Shown in pieces: positions 4,107-23,455 of a stretch of DNA of 24,000 nucleotides (positions are counted from its first letter, which is position 1; every line of letters begins with the position of its first letter). The translations under genes and the position numbers were made by a program. This stretch comes from Promethearchaeota archaeon (GTDB lineage: Archaea; Asgardarchaeota; Lokiarchaeia; Sigyniarchaeales; SOKP01). The notes under the pieces were generated by a model. That model worked only from the letters and a program-made list of their open reading frames with translations, was not told the origin of the DNA and searched no databases. The DNA lies in the NCBI GenBank assembly GCA_029838195.1, contig JALGVJ010000020.1, positions 22,240 to 46,239 of the forward strand, in the 5' to 3' direction.

Positions 4107-4129
4107 CCCTCAAACGAGCACTCTGAACC
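4107..4129 (+). other. 5' strand of the bulge-helix-bulge (BHB) processing stem flanking 23S rRNA
   Basis: 4107-4115 pairs with 7494-7502 (9 bp). 4116-4119 (GAGC) pairs with 7487-7490 (GCUU), giving 4 bp. 4120-4122 (ACU) is a 3-nt bulge. 4123-4129 pairs with 7480-7486 (7 bp). Confidence 0.8.
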
Positions 4130-4139
4130 TTTCCCTGAG

Positions 4140-7470
<3,331 letters not shown>

Positions 7471-7479
7471 GGGCTTGTT

Positions 7480-7502
7480 GGTTCAGGCTTAGGGTTTGAG
7501 GG
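7480..7502 (+). other. 3' strand of the BHB processing stem flanking 23S rRNA
   Basis: 7480-7486 pairs with 4123-4129. 7487-7490 pairs with 4116-4119. 7491-7493 (AGG) is a 3-nt bulge. 7494-7502 pairs with 4107-4115. A further 9-bp leader/trailer helix joins 4091-4099 with 7523-7531. Confidence 0.8.
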
Positions 7503-14120: not shown

Positions 14121-14196
14121 GCCAGAGTAGCTTAGCCTGGTTGAGCGTCAGCCTGCAGAGTTGATGACGGGAGTTCGAATCTCTCCTCTGGCTCCA
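14121..14196 (+). tRNA. tRNA-Cys (GCA), no intron, CCA encoded
   Basis: Folded by hand. Acceptor stem is GCCAGAG/CTCTGGC (7 bp). D arm is GCTT-AGCCTGGTT-GAGC. Anticodon stem is TCAGC/GTTGA with loop CT-GCA-GA. Variable region is TGAC. T arm is GGGAG-TTCGAAT-CTCTC. The discriminator is U73 (the Cys identity element), followed by CCA at 14194-14196. Confidence 0.92.
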
Positions 14197-14435: not shown

Positions 14436-16178
14436 ATGGTTGAGGAATACGATTTTCTCTTTAAATGCATAGTCGTGGGCGATGGAGGCGTCGGAAAGAC
14501 TGCACTAACAATAAGATTTTCCCAAGGATTTTTTGCTGAAGATTATAAAATGACTATTGGTGTTGATTTTAAGGTTAAAACAATTTCGGTATACGATCCA
14601 AATGGAAATCCGATTCGAGCTAAATTACAAATATGGGATACCGGCGGTCAAGAACGATTTGCGTCTATTCGTCCGATGTATTACCGAGGGGCATTAGGGG
14701 CCTTATTAATTTTTGATTTGACGTCCTATGAAAGTTTTGAGCACTTGCCAAGATGGATCGAAGAAATTCGGGCAAATACGAGTACTGAGATTCCTTTATT
14801 ATTAGTAGGAAATAAAAGTGATTTGGAGGAATCAAGAGCGGTAAGTCCGGAAGAAATTAATGAATTTACCCAAAAATTTAACTTGTTTTACATGGAAACT
14901 TCTGCAAAAACAGGAGCTGGGGTTGGAGATTGTTTTTATATCTTAGCATGCCTCATGATTGGTCAAGGCGTTCCCGAAAAATTAATTGCAGATAATACCG
15001 TCTTCAAACCGGGAGAAATTACAACCGTAGCGGCACCAAGAATACCGGAAGCCGACCTTTCCTACGCAGAGCCTTCTTTTGAGGAAGAATTTCAAGAAGA
15101 ATCTCTTGTTCCAACTCCCGAAAAATTTGATGAATCTCCCTCTCTTGAGAACGAATCATTAGTTCCAGAACCTTTTCAAGAAATACCTTCTGAACCCCCC
15201 CTTTCTAACATGGAGGCAGAACCAAGCAATTCCCCGCCTGCTCCTCCTTCTATGGACGAATCTACCCCGACTTTTACTAAAGCTCCTACTGAATCAATAA
15301 TGCCTACTTCTTCACTTACACCTCCCCCTACCCTTCCATCTCCGGAATCAAAGATTGAACCCTATAAGGAAAGTCTTGCTCCAGCAGCATCTGGCTTAAA
15401 AGAAACAAGTGATTTTACACCCCTTCCTACTCTTCCAAAAACTTCAGAAGGAGAAAAATATAAACCAAAAGTCATTCCATTTTCCCCTAAAACACCTACT
15501 CCCGTACCACCTCCTAAAGATTTCGTGAGACCCGTGGTAGAAGAGTCTCCGATGGAGGAATCCAAAGAAAGGACTCCTTTTATTATACCTCCTTCTAAAA
15601 AAACAGAAGAAACACCTTCTTCCTCGTTGCCATTCATGAACAGGTCCGTACCTGTCGCAGAAGCTCCTTCTGAATCGAAAGAGAGAGAATCTCCCTTAGA
15701 ATTCGCTTCATCAAAAGAAATTTCAAAAAAAGAAAAGAAAAAAAAGGCCAAGAAGAAAAAGAAAGAAGGAAAGGAGAAAAAAATGAAAGAAGAAATCCCA
15801 GAAAAGCCAGTGTTCTTTGATGCTATTGAAAGCACCATCAAACAAAAAGAAGTCCGAAAACCTGATCTTTCAAAACCAAAAAGCTCACTATTCGAAACCT
15901 TGACTCAAAAATCCGAAAGCCCCATTCCAGAAAAACCATCCTTCTTTCAGGAAATTTCACGACAAGCCACTACTCCGAAAAAAGAATTTAAATTAGAAGT
16001 CATACCTTCTCCGGAAGAACCGGGATTAACTCCTCCCCCAAGCCCGGCATCATCCTTTCCTTCCATGCAAGAAAGAAGAGAAAAACAACCGGAGGATATA
16101 GTAATTTGTAGCAATTGCGGTGCTATTCTATCAAGAGATTACATGTATTGCAATAAGTGTGGAAGTAAGTTAGGGTAA
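14436..16178 (+). CDS. Rab-like small GTPase (aa 1-178) fused to a ~380-aa Pro/Glu/Ser/Lys-rich disordered region and a C-terminal zinc ribbon
   Basis: G1 is GDGGVGKT (aa 15-22). Switch-I is TIGVDF (RabF1-like). KLQIWDTGGQERF covers G3 plus a RabF2-like block. YYRGA is present. G4 is GNKSDL and G5 is ETSAK. There is no CAAX/CC prenylation end. The protein ends instead with C558-x2-C-x10-C-x2-C575-GSKLG. Confidence 0.9.
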   Translation: MVEEYDFLFKCIVVGDGGVGKTALTIRFSQGFFAEDYKMTIGVDFKVKTISVYDPNGNPIRAKLQIWDTGGQERFASIRPMYYRGALGALLIFDLTSYESFEHLPRWIEEIRANTSTEIPLLLVGNKSDLEESRAVSPEEINEFTQKFNLFYMETSAKTGAGVGDCFYILACLMIGQGVPEKLIADNTVFKPGEITTVAAPRIPEADLSYAEPSFEEEFQEESLVPTPEKFDESPSLENESLVPEPFQEIPSEPPLSNMEAEPSNSPPAPPSMDESTPTFTKAPTESIMPTSSLTPPPTLPSPESKIEPYKESLAPAASGLKETSDFTPLPTLPKTSEGEKYKPKVIPFSPKTPTPVPPPKDFVRPVVEESPMEESKERTPFIIPPSKKTEETPSSSLPFMNRSVPVAEAPSESKERESPLEFASSKEISKKEKKKKAKKKKKEGKEKKMKEEIPEKPVFFDAIESTIKQKEVRKPDLSKPKSSLFETLTQKSESPIPEKPSFFQEISRQATTPKKEFKLEVIPSPEEPGLTPPPSPASSFPSMQERREKQPEDIVICSNCGAILSRDYMYCNKCGSKLG

Positions 16179-17151: not shown

Positions 17152-17760
17152 ATGAAGGTCGATCGAGAACACGTGAAAGCGATTTTAGAAGCCATTCATC
17201 TATTATTGGAACTCAAGGTGCTCATCAGGAATAATGTACCCAATTATGAATTTGATGATAAAGAGGCAAGAACCTTTTCCAAATTAATTTCTTCTCTACA
17301 AGAACTTCTTGAACCGCTTTTTCTGGCATATGGACGATTTGAAAATATGGAAAAAGAAAGAGAGGAAGCAAAGAAGGAGATTATCTTGAATCTGGAGGAT
17401 TTCAAAACCACCCCAAATCTCATTCTCATCTCTTCAAACGCCGTGAAAAAAAAATTGAAGAAAATGGGGGTGGATCCCCGAAAATTAATTGCAACCGGAG
17501 GACCTTTCTTTTTTGAGGATTATAAAAAGATTAATCCGTCACTCACTCCTCAAGCGATCAAGAGCATTGAAAAAAAATGTCAAAACTTGATTAATCAACT
17601 AAAAAGGGAAAAATGGAAAAATAAAGATTTGATTTTCATTCAAGAAGAAAACAATCCCACGGACGCCTTAATTTTGGAAAGAATTCACGATATTTCTACT
17701 CTCATTGGAAAGGAAGTAAAAGTAATCAAGATAAAATCTTGGTCCTTACTTGATCAATGA
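17152..17760 (+). CDS. Hypothetical protein (202 aa)
   Basis: ATG start and normal composition. It is divergent from 16373..17050 across a palindromic AT-rich promoter region. No motif was recognised. Confidence 0.45.
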   Translation: MKVDREHVKAILEAIHLLLELKVLIRNNVPNYEFDDKEARTFSKLISSLQELLEPLFLAYGRFENMEKEREEAKKEIILNLEDFKTTPNLILISSNAVKKKLKKMGVDPRKLIATGGPFFFEDYKKINPSLTPQAIKSIEKKCQNLINQLKREKWKNKDLIFIQEENNPTDALILERIHDISTLIGKEVKVIKIKSWSLLDQ

Positions 17761-19019: not shown

Positions 19020-20228
19020 TTGACAACCATAAAAGATAAGAAAAAAAAAGAGGAAAGTAAAGACGAGGAATACTTGATCACCTATACTCGACACTTGGAA
19101 AAGCGATTAAGAAACTTGGAAACGGAAAAACAATTATTAGATGCTGAACGCCTACGATTAGAACAAGAATTGCATAGCTTGAGAAATGAAATAGATAGAT
19201 TAAGAGAGCCCCCCTTAGTAACTGCCACGGTAATCGATGTTCTCGATGATGATGGAAGAGCCATCGTTAAAAGTTCCACCGGACCTAGTTTTGTGGTAAA
19301 TACTAGCAGGAAAGTGAGAAATGAAAAACTTGACCCCGGCATGAGGGTGGCTTTAAATCAAAGAACCTTTGCCATCATGGAAGTGCTGCCCATGAAATTA
19401 GATCCCTTAGTAAAAGGAATGGAGCTCATCGATTCCGTACCAAATGTTTCTTACAATGATGTCGGAGGACTGGATGAACAATTACAAGAAGTCAGGGAAA
19501 CTGTCGAACTACCCTTGAAACGACCTGATTTGTTTAAAAATATTGGAATTGAGCCTCCGAAAGGTGTTCTCTTACATGGTCCACCTGGTACGGGAAAAAC
19601 CTTAGTCGCTAAAGCGGTTGCTCATGAAACCGATGCAACCTTCATTAGAATCATTGGCTCCGAATTAGTGCAAAAGTTCATCGGAGAAGGCGCACGTTTG
19701 GTTCGTGAAGTGTTTAATTTAGCAAAACAAAAAGCACCGACCATCCTTTTCATTGATGAATTGGATGCCATCGGTTCTCAGCGGTTGCAAATTGCAACTT
19801 CGGGAGATCGAGAGGTTCAAAGAACCCTCATGCAACTGCTAAGTGAATTAGACGGCTTTGAACAGCGGGGAGATGTAAAAATTATTGGCGCCACTAACCG
19901 AATTGATATTTTAGATCCTGCTTTATTAAGGCCTGGAAGATTTGACCGCATCATCGAATTTCCCATTCCTTCTGAAGAAGGACGAGAAGCGATCTTTAAA
20001 ATTCATATGAGAAACTTGCGCATTGATGAGCGTGTAGATGTTAAAAAATTAGTAAGTCTTACGGAAGGGGCAACGGGAGCCGATATTAAAGCTATCTGCG
20101 TCGAAGCGGGAATGTTTGCGATTCGAAAAGAAGCACAAGTTATTACTTTTGAAGACTTTGTTGACGCAGTGAATAAAGTCATGAAAAAAGCACGAGAAAC
20201 ACCTTTAGATTCAAAATTATATTCCTAA
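19020..20228 (+). CDS. pan: Proteasome-activating nucleotidase PAN (Rpt-like AAA+ ATPase)
   Basis: N-terminal coiled coil ([26 protein letters not shown]...), an OB segment, Walker A GPPGTGKT, Walker [10 protein letters not shown], second region of homology, and a C-terminal HbYX-type end (..KLYS). TTG is the only available start upstream of the coiled coil. Confidence 0.95.
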
Positions 20229-20302
20229 ATATTCTTTTTCTTGTTGGTTTTTTTCCAAATCTTTTATATTATCACTAACTACTCCATGTAAGAGGGTATA
20301 TC

Positions 20303-20788
20303 ATGGATTCCAATCATGTCCTTAATCTACGCAAGATTAAAGCAATTGCCGATTATCAATTTGGCCCCGTAATATCTAATCTCTTGTTGGATGATATGAA
20401 AAAGATTGAAATTGAACTATCAAAAAACACCAATAAAATTCGACATGTATTTTATGATGGAGAATTGTTTTTAAATTTACGCCCTCGAAATGGACTTTTT
20501 ACCCTAACATTCCTTGCGGCCCAAAAAATAATCTATAATGTTCCTCCTCCTCGATTAAGAGTAGTCGTTCAAAACAATATCTCGAAATTCATTCAAAAAG
20601 GAAGAAACGTGTTTTGCAAGCATGTTGTCAATTTAGATACCACCTTGAGACCTCGTGATGAAACCATCGTGGTGAACGAAAATGATGAATTATTAGCTCT
20701 TGGAAGACTCAAACTGCCTATAACACACGTACTCTGGTTTAAACGAGGCATTGCCGTAGATGTAAGAAAAGGAATTCTTTCAAGCTAA
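20303..20788 (+). CDS. PUA-domain RNA-binding protein (ArcTGT C-terminal-like, COG1370-type)
   Basis: The N-terminal LRKIKAIADYQFG...LNLRPRNGLFTLT and the C-terminal GRNVFCKHVV..D..LRPRDETIVVNENDELLALGRLKL...GIAVDVRKG match the PUA pattern as I recall it. Confidence 0.6.
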   Translation: MDSNHVLNLRKIKAIADYQFGPVISNLLLDDMKKIEIELSKNTNKIRHVFYDGELFLNLRPRNGLFTLTFLAAQKIIYNVPPPRLRVVVQNNISKFIQKGRNVFCKHVVNLDTTLRPRDETIVVNENDELLALGRLKLPITHVLWFKRGIAVDVRKGILSS

Positions 20789-20849
20789 AAAAATTATATT
20801 CTTTAATTACTTTTATTCATTCAAGAATAATTATAAAATGGTGTAGATA

Positions 20850-21335
20850 ATGGTTAAATTACCAAAAGAAATGCAAAAAAAAGAAAAAGCCCGACCAAGA
20901 AGACCTCAAAAAGTAGTGAAAAGAGAGGGTACCTCACAATTTAGTTCCAGACAAATGAGGCGTAAAATGAAACAACAAGGCATCGATCTGGAACAAATTG
21001 AAGCAGAACGAGTGATTATTGAACAACCGCATCAAACCTTAGTAATTGAAGAACCCGAAATTGTATTGATGAAACAAGGGGGACAAGAAATTTATCAAAT
21101 TATTGGGAATGCTGAACCAATGGAACCCGAGCAGGTCATTCCCTTACAAAAGGAAGAAGGGCTGGAAAGCAAGGGATCCCCAGAAGAAACCGAACTCAAA
21201 CCCACCATTACAGAAGAAGATATCATGCTGGTAGCAGCTCAATCCAAGGTAGATAAAAAAGAAGCGGAAGCGGCTTTAATTGAAACGAATGGCGATATTG
21301 CAAAAGCGATTCTTCTTTTAAAAAATAGAATCTAA
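20850..21335 (+). CDS. nac: Nascent polypeptide-associated complex protein (NAC domain plus C-terminal UBA)
   Basis: NAC domain: RQMRRKMKQQGIDLEQIEAERVIIEQPHQTLVIEEPEIVLMKQGGQEIYQIIG. UBA domain: EEDIMLVAAQSKVDKKEAEAALIETNGDIAKAILLLK. It has an extra basic N-terminal extension and an acidic linker. Confidence 0.85.
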   Translation: MVKLPKEMQKKEKARPRRPQKVVKREGTSQFSSRQMRRKMKQQGIDLEQIEAERVIIEQPHQTLVIEEPEIVLMKQGGQEIYQIIGNAEPMEPEQVIPLQKEEGLESKGSPEETELKPTITEEDIMLVAAQSKVDKKEAEAALIETNGDIAKAILLLKNRI

Positions 21336-21408
21336 CTATAATAATAATTTATAATAAGAATATCTTTATTTAGTTTAATTCAAAAAAATAATTCCGATAT
21401 TAATATTA

Positions 21409-21939
21409 ATGCCTTCAAAAAAATCATCTTACCATGAGGAATGTCCTGTCTGTGGTGGCTTGATTTGGGGAAAAGGTCAAAAAGTATTGGTAGAAGGAAT
21501 AAAAATCACTATATGCCAAAATTGTGCTGAGAAAGCTAAGAAAATCATAAATACTCCCCGAACAGTGCCATCAAGACCTCCTGTCAAGCCCAAAACAATC
21601 GTTAAAACAAAACCTCGATCCCGTAGCAGTCCACCTCCTGATGAACCCTCTATTGAAATCGTTTCGGATTTTGCCAAGAAAATCCATCACGCTCGCATGA
21701 AAAAAAATCTCAGTCAAGACAAGCTCGCTCAACAAATTCAAGAAAAAGTTTCTTTAATCCGTAGAATCGAAGCAGGAAAAATAGAGCCACCTCTAAAGAT
21801 CGCAGGAAAATTAGAAAAAGTCTTGGGTATCAAGTTAATGAGAGAAACCACGGAAACGCCCGTTGATTATCGAAAATTCTTGAAAAAATCTAAAGGCACT
21901 AGCTTGGGAGATATCGCATTTATTAAGAAAAAAAAATAA
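21409..21939 (+). CDS. mbf1: Archaeal multiprotein bridging factor 1 (zinc ribbon plus Cro/C1-type HTH)
   Basis: N-terminal CPVCGG...CQNC ribbon, a Pro/basic linker, and the HTH IHHARMKKNLSQDKLAQQIQEKVSLIRRIEAGK. Confidence 0.85.
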   Translation: MPSKKSSYHEECPVCGGLIWGKGQKVLVEGIKITICQNCAEKAKKIINTPRTVPSRPPVKPKTIVKTKPRSRSSPPPDEPSIEIVSDFAKKIHHARMKKNLSQDKLAQQIQEKVSLIRRIEAGKIEPPLKIAGKLEKVLGIKLMRETTETPVDYRKFLKKSKGTSLGDIAFIKKKK

Positions 21940-21941
21940 AC

Positions 21942-22529
21942 TCATGACTCATTAATTTTTATTTCCGTTTTCTCACAGACTAGAATGCGTTTCTTTAAAA
22001 ATTCTATGATATCTTTATTATCTTGCGCTTCTAAAATACCGCCGCATTCGGGACATCTAAAATTGAGCTCATATGCATCATCAAAATTATATTTGATGGT
22101 TTTATCTTCGCATTGATTGCAAATGAAAAAATAATTGTTTTCCTCAAAATAAAGCCTATCCCGTAATTTCATTTCCATTAATTTCTTTTTTTCTTCCAAA
22201 ATTTCTTCTAATCGGTCAAATTCGTGCCACCAAAAATAGATAAACCACTCCGGAACTCACGCGAAACACGCAAGCTTTCCCGTAGATTTATCACGAATTC
22301 GCCGAAATTGAGCCAATTTTTCTCCGTATAAAGTATATAACGTTTTTCGAACGGTATTTAACTTAAGAATCTCATCTTCTTCTTCCGGTTCGAATTTCAC
22401 TTCTTTCCCGCTTTTTAAAATTCGTTCCTTGATATTTTCCGTGATGTCCTCGTCGGTAATGTCTTTCCCTTCCGAATTAATCAATTCTAAACCCACTTCA
22501 ATGGCCACATCTCCACCAATTATGTACAA
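21942..22529 (-). CDS. tfe: Transcription factor E (TFE, TFIIE-alpha homologue) interrupted by one in-frame TGA at 22259..22257
   Basis: The two track ORFs (22257..22529 and 21942..22199) are in the same phase. Read through, the frame gives a winged helix (...NTVRKTLYTLYGEKLAQFRRIRDKSTG[KLACFA*VPE]WFIYFWW...) and then a zinc ribbon (FFICNQC...FRCPECGGIL), matching TFE end to end. The N-terminus is uncertain: the frame stays open upstream to 22589 with no ATG or GTG. Confidence 0.8.
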
Positions 22530-22678
22530 AAAAGATTCTAAATATTTGTTTAATTGTTTAATTGCAATAAACCCCTTTTTTATCTTCTTTTATTAACCTA
22601 ATATAAGGTAGCAAACAAAAATTAAGTTTACTTTTTCTAAAAAAAATAAAGCATGAGGCTAATTTTAAAAATAAAAAT

Positions 22679-23455
22679 CTATACAATGATAGAATATTGT
22701 TTTTTCAAGGTGGTTCCATTTACCTCGAGAACTCTCTCCAATGTTCCTTTTCTTATAGCCCTAATCCGCAAGAATCTGGAATTTTTCACGTTTTTAGGAA
22801 TCTCTATTTCGGTAATGGAATAATTATTGGAAAGAAGAATTGTTTTCCATTTTTCTGGTAAATCCGATGCAAAATCTGACAAGGCCAATTTAATGATTGT
22901 TGCCATGTTCTCCGTGGTATTGGCAAGAACTCCCGTGCAAAAATCTACCTTTGAATTCACGTCCTCCTCCATTGGTTGTTTTCTCGACGGTTGAGGAAGT
23001 CTTTTTTTCGTGATAACTCGATGATTTGAATCATGTTTAAAACTCAATAGTAAATAGCCATGCGTTCTTAATTGCTCAATGATTTCTAATAATTTTTGTT
23101 TCTCCAACTCATCGGAAATCTCTGCTTTATAATTTTCTGCTTTTCCCTTGGATTTCTTTAGAGCCCAATTTAACCCTAATTCTTTTAGCAAGGGATTGAT
23201 ATCTTGACCCGTGTATAATACCCCTGTTATCTTGATGGACCCCGCAGGAATGGAAGATACCACGATTTCTTGAATGAGATCTTCATAATCAAAACTCCCT
23301 TTCAAGGTTATCTTTGACCTCGTTTGAGTGATTTTCAACGCTGGACCTGAAAATTTACCCCGCGAATATCGATAAAAATGCCGATGAACATTCATGTGGT
23401 TCTTTGCTGGCTCCTCCAACTGAGGTGTTCTAATTATTTGTTCTAAAAAATGCAT
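22679..23455 (-). CDS. Hypothetical protein (258 aa)
   Basis: Long ATG-initiated ORF with balanced composition. No family was recognised from memory. Confidence 0.5.
   Translation of the reverse strand: MHFLEQIIRTPQLEEPAKNHMNVHRHFYRYSRGKFSGPALKITQTRSKITLKGSFDYEDLIQEIVVSSIPAGSIKITGVLYTGQDINPLLKELGLNWALKKSKGKAENYKAEISDELEKQKLLEIIEQLRTHGYLLLSFKHDSNHRVITKKRLPQPSRKQPMEEDVNSKVDFCTGVLANTTENMATIIKLALSDFASDLPEKWKTILLSNNYSITEIEIPKNVKNSRFLRIRAIRKGTLERVLEVNGTTLKKQYSIIV

Follow-up and report, generated by a model that had tools for sequence, protein, structure and literature searches.

The 24,000-nucleotide (nt) stretch of the Promethearchaeota contig JALGVJ010000020.1 analyzed here (hereafter, the window) carries on its minus strand the gene tfe, whose product is transcription factor E (TFE), the homologue of TFIIE-alpha. 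This gene contains a real, conserved and structured intervening sequence with an in-frame stop codon. Comparison of related genes suggests that the 30 nt concerned (22277..22248) are probably a bulge-helix-bulge (BHB) intron, similar to that of cbf5, which would be removed by the tRNA-splicing endonuclease and a ligase. This explanation, the one we favor, is missing from the alternatives offered by the original prediction, which had noticed the stop codon and proposed selenocysteine or another recoding event, programmed read-through, a nonsense mutation or an assembly error.

A stop-bearing insert at one codon boundary of tfe

Translation confirmed that the minus-strand tfe frame 22562..21942 is continuous with a single stop, TGA at 22259..22257, and gave the same product around it as had been read before, ...RRIRDKSTG-KLACFA-stop-VPE-WFIYFWWHEFD. 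The TGA lies inside 30 extra nt (22277..22248) placed between the invariant RRIRDKSTG and WFIY.WWHEFD. An alignment with 11 Asgard TFE orthologues, which are at most 74% identical and about 196 amino acids (aa) long, showed that the window has exactly 10 codons more than these, lying between the invariant Gly and Trp; all eleven join RRIRDKSTG directly to WFIY(Y/F)WWHEFD, in agreement with the 10-codon insert of the original prediction, and its description of the insert as lineage-specific and located at the wing tip of the TFE winged helix was also borne out. Once the 10 codons were deleted the Pfam TFIIE_alpha score rose from 33.5 to 47.2 bits, and the spliced TFE aligned across the junction without gaps to the solved structures 6pln, 6kf4 and 1q1h. 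The insert has a guanine-plus-cytosine (GC) content of 57% in a gene of 33%, for which the earlier estimates were about 53% and 30%. No start codon is present from the stop to a TTG at 22199, 19 codons after the Trp, and the earlier argument that the codons behind the stop have no start of their own, and need the insert to be decoded, bypassed or removed, is correct. Gene callers give two open reading frames (ORFs) for tfe, of 83-90 aa and 78-85 aa, the N-terminal piece being labelled 'hypothetical protein' in GenBank. An exact look-up of the 90-aa N-terminal fragment retrieved no record, and the source contigs were found via mbf1, the gene that converges on tfe at a distance of 2 nt.

At the other end of the reading frame, the ATG of the orthologues (M-K/S-E-L-N...) aligns with an ATT at 22562-22560 of the window, immediately upstream of the conserved KQLNKYLESF. 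A protein begun at TTG 22529, the first canonical start, would lack 11 conserved residues. The ATT is identical in loci L001 and L002, which suggests either a non-canonical ATT start or an N-terminally shortened protein.

The insert region is identical in two further independent assemblies, JGI Ga0366835_1001443 and GCA_054387035.1, while outside it they have 11 and 4 differences from the window (99.87% and 99.94% identity, respectively). Because the same insert is present in independent assemblies that differ elsewhere, an assembly error is ruled out, and independent projects contribute nine more variants at this site. The probability left to a sequencing or assembly artefact is therefore negligible, even though the sequences are metagenome-derived and some of the contigs have low coverage.

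These other variants were found in two ways. A degenerate DNA pattern requiring 10-40 nt between the DKSTG and WFIY(Y/F)WW codons matched in three additional species of the genome collection and in a single contig of the metagenome collection, and a search with exon 1 plus the intron-encoded tail returned many N-terminal fragments that end just past RDKSTG with differing tails. This gives ten distinct insert variants, from independent NCBI metagenome-assembled genomes (MAGs) and from JGI, ENA and Logan assemblies, all of them at the identical codon boundary of Asgard (Promethearchaeota) tfe; most orthologues have no insert. Six inserts are 30 nt long (window, L006, L010, L011, L012 and L013; 33 nt from the Thr codon to TGG) and four are 31 nt long (L004, L005, L008 and L014; 34 nt from the Thr codon to TGG). 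A stop (U-R-A) occupies the equivalent codon, the eighth after the Gly, in all ten (alignment A5, columns 42-44), being TGA in two variants and TAA or TAG in the remaining eight. The window insert alone is GC-rich, the others ranging from 23 to 39%, and none of the insert-encoded residues, the Cys included, is conserved among the variants. Wherever the locus is complete, the two exons are intact and of full length, and exon 2 ends at the conserved stop in every variant. A search of about 94 kb for a dispersed repeat or mobile element found no other copies of the insert.

Three other tfe sequences are anomalous at the insert site. The tfe of L016 (protein P0135, locus 115-420) is truncated or rearranged, cut after RDKT by unrelated sequence, and was set aside as uninformative. 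P0143 is frame-shifted exactly at the insert site (RDKARAGSFIIGGTNL), possibly through imprecise intron loss, and P0137 has an in-frame deletion at that site, leading from RDK to LQFE.

The variants bear directly on the proposal that the TGA is decoded, whether by programmed read-through or as the selenocysteine of a CxxU motif, so that 10 residues would be added to the wing tip of TFE. The window insert taken by itself would allow this, as it is in frame and has a single TGA after Cys-Phe-Ala, and most Lokiarchaeia use selenocysteine (PMC11227280). However, the C-x-x-TGA context and the high GC content are peculiar to the window variant, eight of the ten variants carry TAA or TAG at the equivalent codon, four inserts are 31 nt long, the Cys and the other insert residues are not conserved, and most orthologues have no insert. 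Furthermore, Asgard selenocysteine insertion sequence (SECIS) elements lie in the 3'-untranslated region (3'-UTR) and have an AUGA...GA core, and the seven selenoprotein families of Asgard archaea do not include TFE (PMC11227280). Within 1.1 kb no SECIS-like RNA was detected, Rfam matches up to an E-value of 10 being limited to one chance IS009 hit, and the convergent mbf1 leaves no space for a 3'-UTR. TGA is also a genuine stop elsewhere in the window, where it ends ORFs at 1626, 11997 and 17760. The reasons that the original prediction had itself raised against selenocysteine were thus sound, and on the comparative data decoding of the TGA is effectively refuted, with hardly any probability left to it.

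The exon downstream of the stop is under purifying selection in all comparisons, as judged from ratios of nonsynonymous to synonymous differences (pN/pS) of 0.10-0.26. Read in its own frame, exon 2 gave 0.105 for L004 vs L005, two genes in which its frame is shifted against that of exon 1, as well as 0.20 for the window vs L006 and 0.20-0.26 for other pairs; exon 1 gave 0.23 for L004 vs L005. Exon 2 begins with 11 residues, WFIY(F/Y)WWHEFD, that all variants share while the codons vary synonymously. These data argue against a broken tfe, whether a pseudogene or a gene split into two polypeptides, a winged-helix fragment and a zinc-ribbon fragment translated from TTG 22199. The annotation of two ORFs, one of them as a hypothetical protein, would agree with such a split, yet the conserved WFIY(F/Y)WWHEFD lies in the approximately 19 codons from the Trp to TTG 22199, which have no upstream start. 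In addition, the synonymous sites flanking the insert are constrained, and its structure is conserved and covaries in ten variants, unlike a decaying lesion. We consider a broken or split gene highly improbable. Since a 31-nt, TAA-bearing insert cannot be decoded through, the insert must be removed or skipped, and therefore selenocysteine, read-through and a plain pseudogene are excluded.

Proposed exon-intron pairing and removal of the insert

If the insert is a BHB intron, the Arg-Ile-Arg-Asp-Lys-Ser codons of exon 1 would pair in the pre-mRNA with the Trp-Phe-Ile...His-Glu-Phe codons of exon 2 to form an outer and an inner exon-exon helix (H0 and H1), the ACGG of the Thr and Gly codons would pair with the intron CCGG in a central helix of four positions, and the intron interior would fold as a hairpin (Table 1). 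This pairing would leave a 3-nt bulge on each of the two strands, namely GA↓A and AG↓U (arrows mark the predicted cuts). An (alpha-beta)2-type tRNA-splicing endonuclease with an L1 loop would cut each bulge between nucleotides 2 and 3, and an RtcB-type ligase would then join ...ACG GGA to UGG UUU..., giving the spliced junction AUCUACGGGA-UGGUUUAUC. Splicing would restore ...RDKSTGWFIY... and the full-length TFE, with DKSTGWFIYFWWHEFDR as the junction-spanning peptide, while translation of the unspliced mRNA would end at the intron stop codon. In the window the bulges GAA and AGU flank an ACGG/CCGG helix made of three standard pairs and an A·G mismatch. The strict 3-4-3 BHB is found only in L012, which has an A-U pair at the A·G position, and the other variants have a relaxed form.

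An enzyme suited to such a substrate has been reported in the host group: Asgard archaea are said to have a broad-specificity (alpha-beta)2 splicing endonuclease with the L1 (crenarchaeal) loop (PMC5829648), and this type of endonuclease has been linked to relaxed BHBs and to cbf5 mRNA splicing (PMC5829648, PMC10485636, PMC12397907). The window itself contains a canonical 3-4-3 BHB in the processing stem of the 23S rRNA, formed by 4107-4129 with 7480-7502 on the plus strand, in which CCCUCAAAC-GAGC-(ACU)-CUGAACC pairs with GGUUCAG-GCUU-(AGG)-GUUUGAGGG, the bulges being ACU at 4120-4122 and AGG at 7491-7493. Its strand geometry is that of the tfe motif, and it gives indirect support for a suitable endonuclease in the host. 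The tRNA-Cys(GCA) gene of the window (14121-14196, plus strand) has no intron, and tRNA introns could not serve as a lineage control in the loci of the relatives, where no tRNA genes are present.

Covariation supports the fold. In a nine-sequence alignment, 90-93% of the cells pair, against 22-44% with the partners slid, and in 500 shuffles neither the covariation score nor the pairing percentage of the real alignment was ever reached. For H1 and H0 the paired share of cells is 86-100%. Compensatory double changes were found at pairs 20-49, 25-47, 31-41, 32-40 and 33-39, the last three belonging to the upper hairpin, and four of the nine pairs of the inner hairpin show such changes. Pair 25-47 goes from A-U to G-C in L010 and L011, and pair 20-49 of the central helix, which joins the third (synonymous) base of the Thr codon to an intron base, runs through G-C, G-U and A-U. 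RNAalifold applied to the ten variants independently recovered the outer helix and the hairpin, including pair 25-47. The hairpin described in the original prediction was right in outline, but the comparison supports another register.

The upper part of the stop-bearing hairpin covaries freely while the stop codon stays fixed. The conserved stop may be a selected 'safety stop' that ends translation of unspliced mRNA.

The BHB cut rule places cleavage between the second and third bulge nucleotides (PMC2738675). In the in-frame register, which has a central helix of A·G and CGG/CCG, with GA↓A and AG↓U as its bulges and a hairpin from pair 25-47 on, this rule removes exactly 30 nt and gives ...ACG GGA↓UGG..., that is TGW, the same junction as in the intron-less relative L017 described below; all orthologues also join TG to W. 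Such cuts yield the TGW junction in six of the ten variants (the 30-nt group), and this register is supported by the 25-47 covariation and by the L012 A-U pair. An alternative register, R0 (CGGG/UCCG with bulge AAA and a 28-nt intron, the minimum-free-energy fold of the window), was rejected, because with it the six 30-nt variants lose their frame and L014 would acquire a stop (GGA UAA UGG). A single helix-anchored cut rule for all variants was likewise discarded as impossible, the extra nucleotide of the 31-nt group sitting in the 3' bulge. The sole rule that keeps all ten genes in frame is that exon 1 ends with GGA and exon 2 starts with UGG, and because this rule alone does so we infer that the exact cuts delimit the window intron at 22277..22248. 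A scan for BHB motifs combined with ORF joining recovered the same boundaries at its loose setting.

An intron-less relative reproduces the predicted product. In L017 (protein P0093; tfe 691-1272), whose gene is 93.5% identical to that of the intron-bearing L004, the sequence reads ...ACG GGA↓TGG TTT..., which equals the predicted spliced sequence. Intron-bearing and intron-less TFEs are interspersed in a neighbor-joining tree, which is weak given the short protein, but L004 and L017 form a robust case of two close relatives, one with and one without the intron. The pair also differs in the codons that flank the junction: 9 of the 38 differences between the two genes fall within a 54-nt zone around it (L017 964-1017; Fisher p=0.005), the remainder of the gene having about 5% differences. 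All nine are synonymous, multi-step changes such as Ser TCC to AGC and Arg CGT to AGG among them, and the exon-exon fold weakens from -19.2 to -6.0 kcal/mol in L017, with H0 disrupted. Among nine intron-bearing genes, and counting only positions with invariant amino acids, the helix-forming flank codons have a mean pairwise identity of 0.73 vs 0.51 elsewhere (Mann-Whitney p=0.0005), with fixed codons for Ile (ATT), the six-fold degenerate Arg (CGT), Gly (GGA) and Glu (GAA). By this comparison of alleles, the intron-bearing ones hold their flank codons pairing-competent and the intron-less one does not.

The synonymous patch of L017 looks either like a gene-conversion patch or like constraint relaxed after intron loss.

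Several results weigh against a BHB intron. The case is built on comparison of DNA sequences, from which we infer the splicing, and the enzymes named for it are putative. Neither endA nor rtcB was found by Pfam annotation in the 24-kb window, the host enzymes being taken from the Asgard literature. The central helix has an A·G mismatch in nine of the ten variants in the in-frame register, which is also 1.6-2.2 kcal/mol less stable than the neighboring 28-nt register, and the four 31-nt variants need a 4-nt 3' bulge cut 3+1, which is non-canonical. The BHB is the minimum-free-energy fold for the window sequence only. RNAalifold favors over the central helix a pairing of CCACGG (Ser-Thr-Gly codons) with the downstream UGGUGG (Trp-Trp codons), at columns 16-22 with 69-75 of alignment A5 (window about 22285-22279 with 22233-22227, minus strand). 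This pairing carries no covariation signal, because its positions are invariant coding bases, and by the model it may be an alternative conformer of the pre-mRNA, in competition with the central helix of the BHB. Owing to the relatedness of the ten variants, the changes counted as covariation are not independent of one another. Finally, 367 minimal BHB motifs occur in the window vs about 330 in shuffles, and the motif alone proves nothing; as the generic motif is not significant alone, the case rests on the comparative and frame evidence.

Some of these points would also suit removal of the insert from the mRNA by an endonuclease other than the tRNA-splicing enzyme, together with a ligase, or by another RNA-processing activity, with recognition of the conserved hairpin and the exon-exon helices. 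The BHB is relaxed by its A·G mismatch, four variants have the 4-nt bulge, the central helix is not predicted by RNAalifold, and the conserved intron ends, A(A/U)(A/G)G at the 5' side and YYCYGG at the 3' side, could be sequence signals of such an enzyme. However, the BHB geometry with cuts after the second of three bulge nucleotides reproduces the exact junction, the central-helix pair 20-49 covaries, no Rfam ribozyme or other family matches the region, and in the literature searched BHB splicing is the only described removal route for archaeal introns this short. The other archaeal introns mentioned in that literature are group I and group II introns (PMC6125680). We regard another processing enzyme as quite unlikely.

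Skipping of the insert at translation is a second way of leaving it out. In programmed translational bypassing, known from phage T4 gene 60 and from the 'byp' elements of Magnusiomyces mitochondria, the ribosome would take off at the Gly (or Lys) codon, skip the insert and land at UGG. A short, hairpin-forming and stop-containing insert fits this process, which is free of any multiple-of-3 rule and would accept 30 or 31 nt, and in L014 a stop directly follows the Gly codon (GGA UAG). Nevertheless, no matching landing triplet is present: the triplet before UGG is GAG, GAA, CAA or UAA and in no variant GGN. The closest GGN has its end 1-2 nt off the frame, and L012 lacks one altogether. Bypassing would furthermore leave unexplained the exon-intron covariation at pair 20-49 and the long-range exon-exon helices. 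To our knowledge translational bypassing has not been described in archaea. Taken together, these data make it very unlikely.

We looked for further mRNA introns with two BHB plus ORF-joining scans of the window and the larger loci, and found no second one in about 94 kb; the other matches were ordinary gene junctions, rRNA or antisense ORFs only. The remaining ORFs of the window are intact and none is split, according to Pfam annotation.

Assuming that the tfe insert is spliced as a BHB intron, it might by analogy act as a switch, in which the output of full-length TFE, a basal factor of transcription initiation, would depend on the activity of EndA and ligase, which process tRNA and rRNA, in a way similar to XBP1/HAC1. 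The idea arises because the stop is conserved in ten variants and the flank codons are kept pairing-competent, and we consider it improbable as a description of this intron. Were it true, transcription capacity would be coupled to RNA-maturation capacity, and the tfe intron may be one of a larger group of BHB introns, as yet unannotated, in protein-coding genes of Asgard archaea.

Feature coordinates and genomic neighborhood

Table 1. Exons, proposed intron and predicted pairing elements of the window tfe gene (positions in the window; RNA letters as read on the minus strand)
Feature	Position	Strand	Remarks
tfe exon 1	22278..22562	-	ends ...ACG GGA (Thr-Gly); 5' limit uncertain
Proposed 30-nt BHB intron AAGCUUGCGUGUUUCGCGUGAGUUCCGGAG	22248..22277	-	missing in orthologues; boundaries match intron-less L017
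In-frame TGA	22257..22259	-	within the intron, 3' strand of inner hairpin
tfe exon 2	21942..22247	-	starts UGG UUU AUC; wing strand, helix and zinc ribbon; ends TGA 21944-21942
5' bulge GA↓A	22277..22279	-	proposed 5' cut between 22278 and 22277
3' bulge AG↓U	22247..22249	-	proposed 3' cut between 22248 and 22247
Central helix, 5' strand ACGG	22280..22283	-	Thr codon and first G of Gly; pairs with CCGG 22253-22250
Central helix, 3' strand CCGG	22250..22253	-	intron
Inner intron hairpin AGCUUGCGUG-UUU-CGCGUGAGUU	22254..22276	-	about 92-93% of cells pair
Exon-exon helix H1, 5' arm GAUAAAUCU	22284..22292	-	Asp-Lys-Ser codons; pairs with 22246-22239 (GAUAAA.CU with GGUUUAUC)
Exon-exon helix H1, 3' arm GGUUUAUC	22239..22246	-	Trp-Phe-Ile codons
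Outer exon-exon helix H0, 5' arm GAAUUCGUG	22292..22300	-	Arg-Ile-Arg codons; fully paired (100%) in every variant; synonymous sites fixed
Outer exon-exon helix H0, 3' arm CACGAAUUU	22218..22226	-	His-Glu-Phe codons

The interrupted gene lies in a cluster (window 19020-23455) that codes for a PAN ATPase, a TGT_C2/PUA protein, NAC, MBF1, TFE and an unannotated 258-aa protein, and this neighborhood is partly conserved. An ORF of the size of the 258-aa one recurs together with tfe in L013, a convergent HTH_3 (mbf1-like) gene is present in L013 and L014, and genes for a PAN-type ATPase and a TGT_C2/PUA protein recur in L013 in a different orientation. The 258-aa protein beside tfe has no Pfam match.

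Elsewhere in the window, the 23S rRNA gene (4142-7465, plus strand) is 3324 nt long, compared with 2987 nt for the Rfam model, and has no adjoining 16S or 5S gene in the window. The extra length may reflect the enlarged expansion segments described for Asgard large-subunit rRNA. A 580-aa Ras/Roc-family small GTPase with a C-terminal zinc ribbon is encoded at 14436-16178 (plus strand), a kind of protein typical of Asgard archaea. A SepCysE/DUF2100 gene, related to tRNA-dependent cysteine synthesis, follows at 17152-17760 (plus strand), about 3 kb from the tRNA-Cys gene.

Comparison with known introns and related systems

A limited literature search yielded no description of an intron in tfe, or of Asgard protein-coding genes that contain BHB introns. 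A 2023 review expects further cases to come to light (PMC10485636). In the literature searched, a BHB intron within the coding sequence is described for a single archaeal gene, cbf5, and HVO_1309 gives the only other endonuclease-spliced archaeal mRNA reported there. If the proposed splicing is correct, tfe, the gene of a TFIIE-alpha homologue, would follow cbf5 as the second gene of this kind, and no earlier one would be known from Asgard archaea. Asgard archaea are the closest known relatives of eukaryotes. An essential information-processing gene would then be kept interrupted by the tRNA-splicing system, with selection on synonymous sites of the exons keeping the intron removable, and its presence vs absence at 93.5% gene identity would be useful for studying how such introns are gained and lost. 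There are also consequences for annotation, since a tfe called as two hypothetical fragments or as a pseudogene distorts inferences on completeness and gene content of Asgard MAGs. Other cases could be sought by the same recipe, which combines a conserved gene that is interrupted, a BHB motif and a test of whether the frame is restored.

The cbf5 pre-mRNA intron was reportedly described by Watanabe in 2002 and by Yoshinari in 2006. In Crenarchaeota (Aeropyrum, Sulfolobus, Desulfurococcales) cbf5 introns are 16-44 nt long (Yokobori 2009, PMC2738675), and the 30-31 nt of tfe resemble them in being short and located within coding sequence. In both cases the relaxed BHB is made in part of exon sequence and is cut between bulge nucleotides 2 and 3 (the tfe cuts being predicted), the hosts have an (alpha-beta)2 L1-loop endonuclease (in Asgard archaea, as reported in the literature), and presence and absence are patchy among close relatives. 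The two differ in the gene and in the superphylum, Asgard rather than TACK, and the splicing of tfe is predicted from sequence. In addition, tfe has a 4-nt 3' bulge in four variants, an in-frame stop at the same codon in every variant and measurable synonymous constraint on the flanking exon codons.

The BHB mRNA intron of HVO_1309 from Haloferax volcanii is cut by the endonuclease in vitro and gives a circular 46-nt intron in vivo (PMC7714728). It differs from that of tfe in lying in the 5'-UTR, where no frame is interrupted, and in belonging to a euryarchaeon with a homodimeric (alpha2-type) endonuclease. Pre-tRNA introns and pre-rRNA stems share the BHB motif and its strand geometry with tfe, but they are non-coding and have no frame to restore.

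Outside the archaea, XBP1 and HAC1 mRNAs are spliced by the Ire1 endonuclease and the RtcB or Trl1 ligase, the XBP1 intron being 26 nt long, and the reading frame is changed or restored. The likeness to the proposed splicing of tfe is one of analogy and not of membership: a short, non-spliceosomal intron in the mRNA of a transcription factor, with a tRNA-type ligase. The differences are that XBP1 and HAC1 use twin stem-loops rather than a BHB, another endonuclease, and a splicing that is stress-regulated. The bypass elements of T4 gene 60 and the mitochondrial 'byps' are, like the tfe insert, short, hairpin-forming, stop-containing and not bound to a length divisible by 3, whereas the tfe insert has no matching take-off and landing codons, and its exon-intron covariation points to recognition at the RNA level.

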